Shown: piece by piece, positions 33,020-35,615 of the stretch | Layout of the letters: each line of letters opens with the position of its first letter | Numbering within the stretch: position 1 is the stretch's first letter | Assembly (NCBI RefSeq): GCF_003790525.1 | Contig: NZ_CP033635.1 | Strand: one strand, 5' to 3' | DNA from: Escherichia coli | Lineage (GTDB): Bacteria > Pseudomonadota > Gammaproteobacteria > Enterobacterales > Enterobacteriaceae | Length of the DNA stretch: 64,000 nt | Notes under the pieces: model-generated | What the model was told of the DNA's origin: nothing | Database searches by the model: none | The model's input: only the letters and a program-made list of their open reading frames with translations | Position numbers and translations under genes: made by a program

Positions 33020-33217
33020 TTAGCAGCAGCGCGCGCCGCCTTTTCCACCGTAGCGCGCGTCCTGCCGCTCACGGAAAAACTCTTCGTAGGTCATCGGCGT
33101 TTGATCGGGATGGTTAACCCGCATATGTTCGACATAGTTGTCGTAATCAGGCATACCAATCATCAGTTTCGCCGCCTGACCTAAATATTTTCCGGCTTTT
33201 GCCAGTGAATCAAACAT
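33020..33217 (-). CDS. ybdD: DUF466 small protein YbdD
   Basis: 65 aa, ending with CC, immediately downstream of cstA. Confidence 0.85.
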
Positions 33218-33329
33218 CTAAACCTCCGGTAATACAAATGCCCTCCTGAATTAAGAGGGCTTAATTGCTATCAACACGCTCGGGATGAGAGTAAGGGGAA
33301 CGCTCAGCACATTCCCCCTCACTCTGACT

Positions 33330-35435
33330 TTAGTGCGCGCCTTTCGCCTGCGCCACGATCTCCTCGACATTTTCCGGCATCGGCTCATACGGCGTTTCTT
33401 TCGCCGTTGGCTTCGGCTCTTTCAATGCCGCCAGTGCCGTCTTAATCGAGAACAGTGCCAGAACCACCACGACCACCATAAAGAAGATGGTTAACCCGGC
33501 ATCCAGACGGTTGTTGAACACCAGTTGCGCCAGCTGTGACTCGGTATACTGCGACGGAATATTGCCGCTGTCGATCATTGCCTGGAACTTGTTAGCAATC
33601 GCCAGGAAGCCGACTTTTGCATCCAGGCTAAACGCTTTCTGCCAGCCTGCGGTCAGGGTACAAATCAGCAGCCAGGCCGTTGGTACCAGCGCCACCCAGG
33701 CGTAACGTTGACGTTTCATTTTGAACAGCACCACAGCACAGAGCATCAGCGCCATCCCTGCCAGCATCTGGTTGGCAATACCAAACAGCGGCCACAGAGT
33801 GTTAATACCGCCCAGCGGATCGACCACGCCCTGATGGAGGAAGTAGCCCCACGCCAGCACGCACAGCGCCGTTGCCAGCAGGTTAGCAGGCAGTGAATCG
33901 GTCCGTTTCAGGCCCGGAGACACCACGCCCAGCAGATCCTGCAACATAAAGCGCGCAGCACGCGTACCTGCATCCACCGCCGTCAGAATAAACAGTGCTT
34001 CAAACAGAATGGCGAAGTGATACCAGAACGCCACATCCATCATGCCGCCCAGCGCACCGTGCAGAATGTAGGCCATCCCCACCGCCAGGGTCGGCGCACC
34101 GCCCGCACGGGAAATGATCGACTGTTCCCCCACTTCGCTGGCAATCTGATTTAGCGTATCCGGGGTAATCGCAAAGCCCCAGCTACTCACCACCTGCGCG
34201 GCAGAAGCGACTACATCCGCCGTCCCTGCCGGAGCCAGCACTGCCATCGGGCTGTTCATAGCGAAGTACACACCTGGATCGATGATACAGGCGGAAACCA
34301 GCGCCATAATCGCCACGAAGGATTCCATCAACATCCCACCGTAGCCGATAAAGCACGCCTGCCCTTCGTTCGCCAGCATCTTCGGTGTGGTGCCGGAAGA
34401 GATCAGCGCATGGAAGCCAGACACCGCGCCACAGGCGATGGTGATAAACAGGAACGGGAACAGGTTACCGGTCCATACCGGGCCAGTGCCATCGACAAAT
34501 TTAGTTAGCGCAGGCATGGTCAGCGTCGGGCGCATAATCAGAATGCCTACCGCCAGACCGACGATAGTCCCGATTTTCAGGAAGGTTGAGAGGTAGTCAC
34601 GCGGGGCCAGCAGCAACCACACCGGCAGCACCGCCGCCACGAAGCCGTAACCCACCAGCATCCAGGTCAGCTGCACGCCGGTAAAGTCAAAGTACGGTGC
34701 CCAGGTCGGGCTTTCTGCCACCCAGCCGCCAGAGATAATGGCGAAAATCAGGAATACCAGGCCAATCACCGACACTTCCCCAATACGCCCCGGACGCAAA
34801 TAGCGCAGGTAGATCCCCATAAACAGCGCCAGCGGAATGGTGAACGCAACGGTATACGTTCCCCACGGGCTATGAGTCAGGGCTTTCACCACGATCATCG
34901 CCAGCACGGCAAGGATAATGACCATGATCATAAAGCAGGCCACCAGCGCTATCACCCCGGCGGTTGGCCCCATCTCTTCTTTGACCAGCTCACCCAGCGA
35001 GCGACCGTCACGGCGCGTAGAAACAAACAGCACCATGAAATCCTGCACCGCACCGGCGAGAACCACCCCGGCGAGCAGCCAGATCATCCCTGGCAGGTAA
35101 CCCATTTGCGCCGCCAGTACCGGCCCCACCAGCGGGCCAGCTCCGGCAATGGCCGCAAAATGGTGACCGAACAGCACTTTCTTGTCCGTCGGCACATAGT
35201 CCAGCCCGTCGTTATGGCGCACCGCTGGCGTCATACGCGTCGGATCAACCGCCAATACATTTTTGGCGATATAAAGACCATAAAAACGGTAAGCGATCAG
35301 ATAGATACAGACCGACGCCACTACAATCCACAGCGCGTTGATCTGTTCCCCACGATTTAAAGCAATGTATCCCAGAGCAAATGCTCCCATTATAGAGAGC
35401 ACTGTCCAGACGAGGTATTTCCCTGATTTGTTCAT
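33330..35435 (-). CDS. cstA: Carbon starvation protein A (peptide/pyruvate transporter)
   Basis: 701 aa polytopic membrane protein. Confidence 0.95.
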   Translation of the reverse strand: MNKSGKYLVWTVLSIMGAFALGYIALNRGEQINALWIVVASVCIYLIAYRFYGLYIAKNVLAVDPTRMTPAVRHNDGLDYVPTDKKVLFGHHFAAIAGAGPLVGPVLAAQMGYLPGMIWLLAGVVLAGAVQDFMVLFVSTRRDGRSLGELVKEEMGPTAGVIALVACFMIMVIILAVLAMIVVKALTHSPWGTYTVAFTIPLALFMGIYLRYLRPGRIGEVSVIGLVFLIFAIISGGWVAESPTWAPYFDFTGVQLTWMLVGYGFVAAVLPVWLLLAPRDYLSTFLKIGTIVGLAVGILIMRPTLTMPALTKFVDGTGPVWTGNLFPFLFITIACGAVSGFHALISSGTTPKMLANEGQACFIGYGGMLMESFVAIMALVSACIIDPGVYFAMNSPMAVLAPAGTADVVASAAQVVSSWGFAITPDTLNQIASEVGEQSIISRAGGAPTLAVGMAYILHGALGGMMDVAFWYHFAILFEALFILTAVDAGTRAARFMLQDLLGVVSPGLKRTDSLPANLLATALCVLAWGYFLHQGVVDPLGGINTLWPLFGIANQMLAGMALMLCAVVLFKMKRQRYAWVALVPTAWLLICTLTAGWQKAFSLDAKVGFLAIANKFQAMIDSGNIPSQYTESQLAQLVFNNRLDAGLTIFFMVVVVVLALFSIKTALAALKEPKPTAKETPYEPMPENVEEIVAQAKGAH

Positions 35436-35615
35436 AGTTGTTATCCGTGTGCGTGTCCATAGAGATGTTACATTTTGTTTCTATAACATCTTTGTACAAT
35501 TTAACAACACAGCAACCATATAAATCAGAGTTAAAACCAATATTTAACTTAACAACGTTAACTCGATCACTCCGTTAACCGAATTTTCCTGCAATCTCAT
35601 TTTATTCTGTCGGGT

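Follow-up and report, generated by a model that had tools for sequence, protein, structure and literature searches.

A short inverted repeat across the cstA transcription start of Escherichia coli as candidate repressor half-sites in the core promoter

The inverted repeat that precedes cstA in a 64-kb Escherichia coli window (the whole stretch of DNA analysed) spans the transcription start, and its two arms may well be repressor half-sites that would occlude the cstA promoter, set within otherwise ordinary promoter anatomy. Between the arms lie the putative -10 hexamer, the discriminator and +1, and each arm carries ATGTTA, the core of the direct-repeat element read by response regulators of the OmpR/PhoB family. 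With elements at -36..-27, -18..-9 and -3..+7, a phosphorylated response regulator would sit on the RNA polymerase footprint, and cstA would be shut off as a result. The first candidate would be ArcA-P, a published direct repressor of cstA, and the second OmpR-P. We infer the action of ArcA or OmpR at these particular elements from sequence, that is, from their positions relative to the mapped start, their scores and their conservation, alongside the published repression of cstA.

Position of the repeat in the cstA promoter

The repeat AGATGTTA-N13-TAACATCT occupies 35491-35463 (8 + 13 + 8 bp) on the minus strand, as do all gene and promoter features below, with the ArcA-type elements described by strand where they are introduced. 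A first-pass annotation had reported a 7-bp repeat upstream of the cstA start codon, which proved correct in place and one base too short on each side. Published 5' ends of the transcript fall at 35471..35474. TSS-seq places +1 at G35471 with a 36-nt 5' UTR (PMC3415461 supplement; mapped onto the window here), and a CsrA modelling paper uses a start at A35474 with a 39-nt UTR (PMC6028588 supplement). Both starts fall within the spacer of the repeat or at its edge, and the arms therefore lie at -20..-13 and +2..+9 (+1 = 35471), such that the 5' arm (35484..35491) is untranscribed and lies between the -35 and -10 hexamers, immediately 5' of the latter, while the 3' arm (35463..35470) forms nucleotides +2..+9 of the mRNA. 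From position 97 of the 180-nt entH-cstA spacer (window 35519) to the ATG, this strain has the same sequence as K-12. The earlier description of a palindrome in the cstA leader consequently holds for the 3' arm, which is in the mRNA, and fails for the 5' arm, which is promoter DNA with +1 at either 35471 or 35474. The repeat thus plausibly belongs, as DNA, to the CRP-dependent core promoter of cstA, where it spans the start, as opposed to forming an RNA leader structure.

The remaining promoter elements were assigned relative to this start. The putative -10 hexamer TAGAAA (35478..35483) follows from +1 = 35471 and conservation, and the putative -35 hexamer TTGTTA (35502..35507) is invariant in a 22-genus alignment. 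A pattern match to a CRP site, AGTGATCGAGTTAACG (35556..35571; centre -92.5 from +1 = 35471), is conserved as GTGATCnnGTTAAC in the same alignment; published work locates this site in the region -200..-120 relative to the ATG and approximately 80 nt upstream of the start. GGA motifs of the type bound by CsrA are present in the leader downstream of the palindrome (35444..35458), at 35458-35456 and, in the Shine-Dalgarno region, at 35446-35444.

Taken alone, the repeat is not beyond chance. Among 5000 dinucleotide shuffles of the 180-bp, 34% G+C entH-cstA spacer, with a repeat spacer of 3-20 nt allowed, perfect inverted repeats of 8 bp or longer arose in 5.7% of shuffles and those of 7 bp in 20.7%, and the 64-kb window contains about 30 loci with 8-bp inverted repeats of that kind.

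Conservation across the Enterobacteriaceae

Conservation was assessed using an alignment of 22 genera and a set of 75 orthologous loci or promoters. Across the 22 genera, the full dyad was found only in Escherichia and Citrobacter, with a G·T version in Salmonella. The part that is conserved family-wide (22 genera, 75 loci) is a near-invariant 20-bp block, TAGAwACAAAATGTAACATC (35464..35483), which holds the 3' arm and extends from the putative -10 hexamer through the discriminator and +1 to the eighth transcribed base. Conservation of the palindrome had been set beforehand as a test of the original proposal: outside Escherichia, Citrobacter and Salmonella the dyad fails and its 3' half alone is conserved. 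It is a fair reading, held with about as much confidence as doubt, that the dyad symmetry is a lineage-specific by-product, with the downstream and -35 elements being those conserved across the Enterobacteriaceae and the upstream arm being restricted to Escherichia, Citrobacter and, with a G·T, Salmonella.

The alignment gave no indication of a conserved RNA structure. No covariation was detected across the 22 genera, with the named stem paired in 70.5% of cells (70.1% in shuffles) and a single pair with double changes (1.6 expected). RNAalifold returned no consensus hairpin for the repeat in the 22 genera and nothing conserved at the mRNA 5' end for the segment that runs from +1 through the leader to position +40 of the cstA coding sequence, and a search of 32800-35800 against Rfam at permissive E-values had no match. 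A comparison by eye of the region upstream of btsT with the cstA promoter revealed no common block.

Ordinary promoter function offers other reasons for the same conservation. TTGTTA may be kept simply as the -35 hexamer, and the invariant block may be kept as the -10, discriminator and initial transcribed sequence.

Response-regulator elements and competing explanations

An ArcA direct-repeat weight matrix, refitted on the 243 elements in Table S4 of PMC3798270 (r = 0.9999), predicted ArcA-type elements on the 5' arm (ATGTTATAGA, top strand, 35489-35480; 9.4 bits), on the 3' arm (ATGTTACATT, bottom strand, 35465-35474; 10.5 bits) and on the -35 hexamer (TTGTTAAATT, 35507-35498; 11.6 bits). 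Elements of at least 10 bits number 18 in the whole 64 kb. The 180-bp spacer contains five elements of at least 9 bits compared to 0.72 expected from dinucleotide shuffles (five reached in 0.15%) and is the densest cluster of ArcA-type elements in the window. AT-rich promoters favour matches to an AT-rich matrix, an effect for which the shuffles control. Among the 75 orthologous promoters, a score of at least 8 bits was retained by the 3' element in 73 and by the -35 element in 71, and by the 5' arm element in 12.

Regulation of cstA by ArcA is documented, with 21.5-fold derepression in an arcA mutant and a ChIP-seq peak in the promoter (Park et al. 2013, PMC3798270). The predicted ArcA box in that study (AAGTTAAATATTGGTTTCAAC in K-12; 35530..35550, minus strand; Tables S1, S4) is about 60-80 bp upstream, well outside the polymerase footprint, on which the elements found here lie, and the ChIP peak, from one replicate only, has its summit near 35553, approximately 80 bp upstream. 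The box is tabulated at -44..-24, which implies another start (window 35506), at odds with 35471. In PMC3974632, cstA does not appear in the ArcA/Fnr ChIP-exo supplement.

For OmpR, the motif TGTWACAW has an exact match, TGTAACAT (35472-35465), that overlaps the 3' arm, and it is exact on both strands (35465-35473) at +1; the motif is short, with nine matches in the 64-kb window compared to about seven by chance. In ompR mutants, cstA expression is 2.7-fold higher in S. Typhi and 11.5-fold higher in S. Typhimurium. The published OmpR ChIP peaks do not include cstA, and the effect of ompR on cstA could be indirect: a loss of porins would cause starvation, which would in turn act through cAMP-CRP. 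Repressor half-sites on the promoter would give the strong and unexplained repression of this pyruvate/peptide transporter gene, 21.5-fold by ArcA and up to 11.5-fold by OmpR, a concrete location that can be tested.

The closest competitor, possible and somewhat doubtful, is that the dyad is incidental, its arms constrained for unrelated reasons and read by no protein, whether jointly or singly. On this view the 5' arm would be ordinary spacer or near -10 promoter sequence and the 3' arm the conserved start of the mRNA, kept as start-site context and in part as a target of GcvB R3. The frequency of such dyads in shuffles, the absence of covariation and the limitation of the dyad to one clade all accord with this, as does an experimentally supported GcvB R3 duplex at 35466-35454, the G-22/C162 register of which was reproduced here. 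However, GcvB pairing takes just three of the eight bases of the 3' arm (35466-35464), neither the CRP site, nor most of the leader, nor the -10 hexamer as such is as strictly conserved as the block at -12..+8, and the clustering of ArcA-type elements exceeds that of the shuffles. Pairing of GcvB R1 with the 3' arm was considered and rejected, as R1 is predicted to pair best with the CA-rich +17..+39 and only the known R3 duplex touches the arm.

A more ambitious form of the half-site reading, which we regard as speculative and unlikely, would make the 20-bp block at -12..+8 a dedicated operator for two regulators of the OmpR/PhoB family, ArcA-P (redox) and OmpR-P (envelope/osmolarity), reading the bottom strand as ATGTTACATT-TTGTTTCTAT with 10-bp phasing. 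The extra inverted ATGTTA in Escherichia and Citrobacter would then make the dyad and recruit a second, inverted protomer. If true, pyruvate scavenging would be tied to respiration and envelope state via one shared site.

It is improbable that the dyad itself is the operator of a dimeric repressor such as DeoR. A position over -10/+1 is typical of repressors, a published DNA pull-down with a fragment of the cstA promoter enriched DeoR approximately 2-fold, and the 16-bp DeoR operator TGTTAGAA-TWCTAACA (PMC5326754) has outer pentamers, TGTTA and TAACA, identical to those in the arms and in the same inverted orientation. Beyond these pentamers the match ends, with a spacing of 6 bp in the DeoR operator and 13 bp in the cstA repeat. 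The 5' arm is also not conserved, and deletion of deoR had no significant effect on a PcstA-lux reporter in the literature. Fis (G-N3-R-N5-Y-N3-C), IHF, Lrp, TyrR, PhoP and CpxR consensus sequences were compared with the repeat by eye, and none fits well.

Slightly less credible still, and very unlikely, is a 5' stem-loop on a longer cstA transcript, arising from an upstream promoter (e.g., TTTACA-15-TAAATT, with a start near 35491) or from entH read-through, that stabilises the mRNA or presents an A-rich loop. In a 77-nt RNA begun at 35491, the repeat would form a 9-bp stem (MFE of the RNA -10.6 kcal/mol, z = -2.4), Shimada et al. predicted the TTTACA-15-TAAATT promoter from SELEX data and the start used by Park et al. 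seems to lie farther upstream. Set against this are the TSS-seq 5' end at 35471, the T at -7 of TAAATT, which is not conserved, and the lack of covariation, consensus structure or an Rfam match. An extended -10 (TGtTAAATT) with a start at 35491 was dropped on the same grounds, the unconserved T at -7 and TSS-seq +1 = 35471. On the mapped transcript an RNA-binding hairpin is impossible because the 5' arm is upstream of +1.

The notion that the repeat is a binding site for CsrA or CRP, both of which regulate cstA according to the literature, is effectively refuted by the sequence: the repeat is not CsrA-like because 35463-35491 is without GGA, the core of CsrA sites (usually A(N)GGA), the CsrA-type motifs being downstream at 35458-35444, and no TGTGA-N6-TCACA-like match with three or fewer mismatches occurs over the arms, the conserved CRP site being at 35571-35556. 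The original suggestion of a regulator or RNA-binding site therefore persists in its first half, as the repeat may well be a regulator site, and the CsrA, CRP and RNA-hairpin readings are removed; the correction is that the repeat belongs to the promoter, across the start site, and not to the leader. Its significance beyond such housekeeping is small.

The cstA-ybdD pair and comparison with known systems

The open reading frame at 35435-33330 (cstA, 33330..35435; 701 aa) matches Pfam CstA (PF02554) at full length (profile positions 1-560 of 560; E = 6.2e-257) and corresponds to a pyruvate/H+ symporter of the CstA family, a function taken from PMC7730263 and PMC5847655. On the same strand follows the open reading frame at 33217-33020 (ybdD, 33020..33217), encoding a 65-aa DUF466/Sel_put protein with the C-terminus RCC, a member of PF04328 (Sel_put/DUF466; E = 1.6e-30). 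E. coli SMS-3-5 is 100% identical to the stretch and is annotated there as cstA, ybdD, hcxA and entH. The initial reading of a 701-aa cstA followed by a 65-aa ybdD agrees with these frames and Pfam matches, and the parallel it drew with btsT-yjiX is real, the paralogues having an identical arrangement and YbdD and YjiX sharing 73% identity. In all 79 orthologous loci with enough sequence, ybdD is adjacent to cstA on its 3' side.

This locus encodes the CstA/YbdD system for pyruvate uptake, already known from E. coli. Constitutive pyruvate uptake requires both cstA and ybdD; deletion of either gave an equal loss of pyruvate uptake and equal 3-fluoropyruvate resistance, and the cstA ybdD double mutant had no additive effect (PMC5847655). 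The small protein was thus correctly proposed as a partner of the transporter in the genetic sense, a result previously published through these deletion phenotypes, and the observation of the gene pair contains nothing beyond Hwang et al. 2018. Evidence for the CstA-YbdD partnership is genetic only, and a PDB sequence search returned no relative of CstA or YbdD.

The cstA-ybdD spacer (33218..33329; 112 nt) contains two strong hairpins, of which the second (33260-33240; GCCCTCTTAATTCAGGAGGGC then ATTTGTATT) is terminator-like, and a terminator scan of the spacer called one candidate in this strain. The K-12 spacer is 182 nt with other hairpins. A hairpin is present in all 80 orthologous spacers, each folding at -18.6 kcal/mol or lower (median, -24.5 kcal/mol) with varying hairpin sequences, and at least four T within 8 nt after a stem occur in 24 of the 80 (approximately one third). 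The conserved hairpin may act as a terminator, stabilise the RNA or be part of a separate ybdD transcript beginning 10 nt downstream of the cstA stop codon.

Compared with the known systems, the genes of this locus do not differ from CstA/YbdD of E. coli, and the cstA-ybdD spacer length is strain-dependent. The CstA/YbdD and BtsT/YjiX systems share an arrangement in which the gene for a CstA-family transporter precedes, in the same orientation, one for a DUF466 protein of 65-67 aa with RCC at its C-terminus, both genes being needed for uptake. The promoter resembles class I CRP-dependent promoters in its conserved CRP site, which has its centre at -92.5 relative to the TSS-seq start; this site concerns the promoter and not the palindrome, being 65 bp upstream (its core ends at 35556 and the repeat begins at 35491). 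The OmpR ChIP-associated motif (Perkins et al. 2013) has its exact match at +1 and cstA is OmpR-repressed in two Salmonella serovars, although cstA is without a ChIP peak in that study. Relative to ArcA-P occlusion (Park et al. 2013), the canonical geometry of two direct elements 11 bp apart centre to centre is absent, since the arms are inverted at a distance of 18 bp and, within the invariant block, the two bottom-strand elements are 10 bp apart, and the published box is farther upstream than the core-promoter elements, which are predicted. What is shared with that mechanism is a set of high-scoring wTGTTAA-type elements over -35, -10 and +1 at a promoter listed there as a direct target.

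The cstA–ybdD gene pair and its intergenic spacer

The interval 32900–35700 is 100% identical to E. coli SMS-3-5, where it carries entH, cstA, ybdD and hcxA. On the minus strand, cstA (35435–33330; 701 aa; Pfam CstA, E = 6e-257) is followed by ybdD (33217–33020; 65 aa; Pfam PF04328 Sel_put/DUF466, E = 1.6e-30), and among 80 orthologous loci from 80 species-level Enterobacteriaceae genomes (CstA, 91–99% identity) ybdD lay 3′ of cstA, at a gap of 47–149 nt, in all 79 with enough sequence. The K-12 paralogue btsT is likewise followed by yjiX, the product of which is 73% identical to YbdD. 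The first-pass annotation had described this same-strand order and the parallel with btsT–yjiX and had suggested a role for the small protein as partner of the transporter, and all three hold, the last being already known genetically: both genes were recovered by Tn-seq, pyruvate uptake was lost equally in the single and double cstA/ybdD deletions, and Hwang et al. (2018) concluded that CstA and YbdD form one transport system, with direct interaction still to be demonstrated (PMC5847655). Later work identified CstA as a specific pyruvate/H+ symporter (PMC7730263). The pairing itself is genuine and conserved, and has been published before.

Both YbdD and YjiX end in Arg-Cys-Cys (window 33020–33028; 877–885 of L082, the K-12 btsT–yjiX locus), and Campylobacter relatives are selenoproteins (bioRxiv 2022.07.06.499078); the Pfam family is named after selenoprotein relatives with a Cys-Sec end. 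The shared terminal residues point to a possible redox or metal-binding C-terminus on the transporter partner. A sequence search of the PDB found no solved structure for the CstA or YbdD family, with no chain in the 2026 copy matching the 701-aa CstA at E ≤ 0.001, and the CstA transporter family appears to be without a solved structure detectable by sequence.

A strong G+C-rich stem-loop was found in all 80 cstA–ybdD spacers (47–149 nt; minimum free energy −18.6 kcal/mol or better; median, −24.5; median z, −4). The hairpin sequences are unrelated among genera, and even among E. coli strains, so that conservation lies in the fold and not in the bases; the spacer is 112 nt long in the window (33218–33329, minus strand) versus 182 nt in K-12 (3001–3182 of L081, its cstA–ybdD locus), the latter including a REP-like element. 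About a third of the spacers (24 of 80) have at least four T within 8 nt after a stem, and the paralogous K-12 btsT–yjiX spacer (L082, 1081–1129) has a terminator-like hairpin, GCCCCGCTTCGGCGGGGC then TTTGTTCTT, between transporter and small gene. The cstA–ybdD stem-loop may be a terminator, a stabiliser or part of the ybdD leader. A TSS-seq 5′ end at U00096.2 631232 was assigned to ybdD with a 173-nt UTR (Kim et al. 2012, PMC3415461) and falls at window ~33320, 10 nt past the cstA stop. An independent start for ybdD, or a processing site, is therefore possible, in which case the spacer hairpins would lie in the ybdD leader.

Conservation and position of the inverted repeat

The promoter of cstA contains the inverted repeat AGATGTTA-N13-TAACATCT (35491–35463, minus strand; 5′ arm 35484–35491, 3′ arm 35463–35470). 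A 7-bp repeat with N13 had been described just upstream of the cstA start codon, and it is present at that place, though with arms of 8 + 8 bp and not 7 + 7. Across 5000 dinucleotide shuffles of the 180-bp entH–cstA spacer (34% G+C), inverted repeats without mismatch, of 8 bp or longer and with 3–20 nt between the arms, arose in 5.7% of cases and a 7-bp repeat in 20.7%, and about 30 loci in the window have comparable 8-bp repeats. As a dyad by itself, the repeat is not beyond chance.

A promoter alignment of 22 genera resolved separate conserved footprints, in order the CRP site, the ATGTAAAT block and TTGTTAAAT, then, past some ten variable bases, the near-invariant TAGAwACAAAATGTAACATC (35483–35464). 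Among the 75 loci sharing the anchor, the 5′ arm was much more variable than the 13-nt spacer and the 3′ arm, and 3′-arm changes occurred without a compensating 5′-arm change. All eight arm positions were Watson–Crick pairs in nine of the 75 (E. coli and eight Citrobacter) and seven were complementary in a further six, five with G·T (E. albertii, another Escherichia, two Citrobacter and one Salmonella) and one, a Citrobacter, with a true mismatch; most genera retain four to five complementary positions, with a TGTT/AACA core. RNAalifold gave no consensus structure at the repeat, and no covariation was found in the stem (paired cells, 70.5% versus 70.1% in column shuffles; pairs with a double change, 1 versus 1.6 expected). 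The palindrome, for which conservation had been proposed as the check, is not conserved as a dyad; only one half is. The 66-bp core promoter was single-copy in 5416 of 5426 E. coli genomes, and the one variant genome inspected (95–99% identity band) differed only outside the repeat. The block 35464–35483 (minus strand, −12 to +8) is nearly invariant across Enterobacteriaceae genera. Its conservation exceeds that of the CRP site and of most of the leader, and no regulator footprint on it was found in the literature examined.

TSS profiling by Kim et al. (2012) placed the cstA start at U00096.2 629081, 36 nt before the ATG, with a 51-nt string ending ...GAAACAAAATG (PMC3415461 supplement), which maps to G35471, and a CsrA modelling paper gave a 39-nt 5′ UTR beginning AATGTAACATC (PMC6028588 supplement), which starts at A35474. 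Both starts, from two independent published sources, lie within, or on the border of, the 13-nt spacer of the repeat, and K-12 equals this strain from position 97 of the entH–cstA spacer (window 35519) through to the ATG. The ArcA box of Park et al., given as −44 to −24 (PMC3798270), implies a start at 35506 and a 71-nt UTR, in conflict with 35471 and 35474. For +1 = 35471 the arms lie at −20 to −13 and +2 to +9, so that the repeat, previously placed in the cstA leader, is real with its position mis-stated: the 3′ arm is in the leader, but the 5′ arm is upstream of the mapped start and untranscribed, and the hairpin into which the sequence could fold as RNA therefore cannot form on this mRNA. 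TAGAAA (35483–35478) and the invariant TTGTTA (35507–35502) are probably the −10 and −35 hexamers. The conserved CRP site AGTGATCGAGTTAACG (35571–35556) has its centre at −92.5, as in class I promoters, and agrees with a literature site ~80 nt upstream of the start, within −200 to −120 of the ATG. The sequence rules out the suggested CsrA or CRP site at the repeat itself, CsrA-type GGA motifs lying downstream (35458–35456 and 35446–35444, minus strand) and the CRP site upstream. The experimentally supported GcvB R3 duplex, of which the register was reproduced (G-22 with C162; 35466–35454), overlaps only three 3′-arm bases, its remainder being downstream.

ArcA- and OmpR-type elements over the cstA start site

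ArcA directly represses cstA (21.5-fold derepression in an arcA mutant in anaerobiosis), with a ChIP-seq peak at the promoter in one replicate, its summit ~80 bp upstream, and a published predicted box, AAGTTAAATATTGGTTTCAAC, at 35550–35530 (PMC3798270). ATTGGT at 35536–35541, upstream of cstA, overlaps the second repeat of this box and resembles one half of the PdhR box, ATTGGT-N3-ACCAAT. Control of a pyruvate transporter gene by a repressor that senses pyruvate would be logical, but there is only a half-site.

An ArcA 10-bp weight matrix was recovered by regression on 243 Table S4 direct-repeat elements and their information scores (PMC3798270; r = 0.9999, RMSE 0.055 bits). The published element scored 10.0 bits in the promoter scan, which also gave, on the top strand, TTGTTAAGTT in the upstream region (35555–35546, 9.9 bits), TTGTTAAATT on the −35 hexamer (35507–35498, 11.6 bits) and ATGTTATAGA on the 5′ arm (35489–35480, 9.4 bits), and, on the bottom strand, ATGTTACATT on the 3′ arm (35465–35474, 10.5 bits) and TTGTTTCTAT on the spacer of the repeat (35475–35484, 7.0 bits). 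ATGTTACATT and TTGTTTCTAT jointly make up exactly the near-invariant block. In the 64 kb no more than 18 elements score 10 bits or higher, and the 180-bp entH–cstA spacer, with five of at least 9 bits versus 0.72 expected (five being found in 0.15% of shuffles), is the densest cluster in the window. Orthologues kept an element of at least 8 bits at the 3′ arm in 73 of 75 loci, at −35 in 71 and at the 5′ arm in 12.

OmpR, from the same protein family as ArcA, is implicated as a second regulator. Expression of cstA rose 2.7-fold in an S. Typhi ompR mutant (PMC2704369) and 11.5-fold in an S. Typhimurium ompR mutant (PMC3586657 supplement); the motif linked to OmpR ChIP-seq peaks is TGTWACAW, mutation of which at tviA abolished OmpR binding, and TGTAACAT (35472–35465) matches it exactly on both strands. 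The published OmpR ChIP peaks do not include cstA, and ompR could act on it indirectly.

The conserved half of the repeat would most simply be an element for a repressor, lying across the start of cstA, and there is perhaps an even chance that response-regulator half-sites occlude the promoter. Alternatively, and less probably, the dyad may be incidental, the promoter and the mRNA-start sequence each being constrained independently. The two readings are weighted in this way because of the geometry of the arms and elements, the upstream ArcA summit, the numbering of Park et al., the absence of cstA from the OmpR peaks, the possibly indirect ompR effect and TTGTTA, which may be conserved merely as a −35 hexamer. 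A DeoR operator is improbable: the arms have TGTTA/TAACA in common with the operator TGTTAGAA-TWCTAACA and a cstA promoter fragment enriched DeoR ~2-fold, but the gap is 13 bp where the operator has 6, and a reporter was unchanged in a deoR deletion. Slightly less probable still is a hairpin formed by a longer cstA RNA with its 5′ end at 35491 or further upstream, as the SELEX-predicted promoter TTTACA-15-TAAATT would give, since no such start appears in TSS-seq and position −7 of TAAATT, a T, is not conserved.

Occlusion by response-regulator half-sites would be a modest, testable refinement of ordinary promoter anatomy, at a promoter already known as ArcA- and OmpR-repressed. In an ArcA box, direct repeats are spaced at 11 bp; the cstA arms, by contrast, are inverted with a spacing of 18 bp, and 10 bp separates the two bottom-strand elements.
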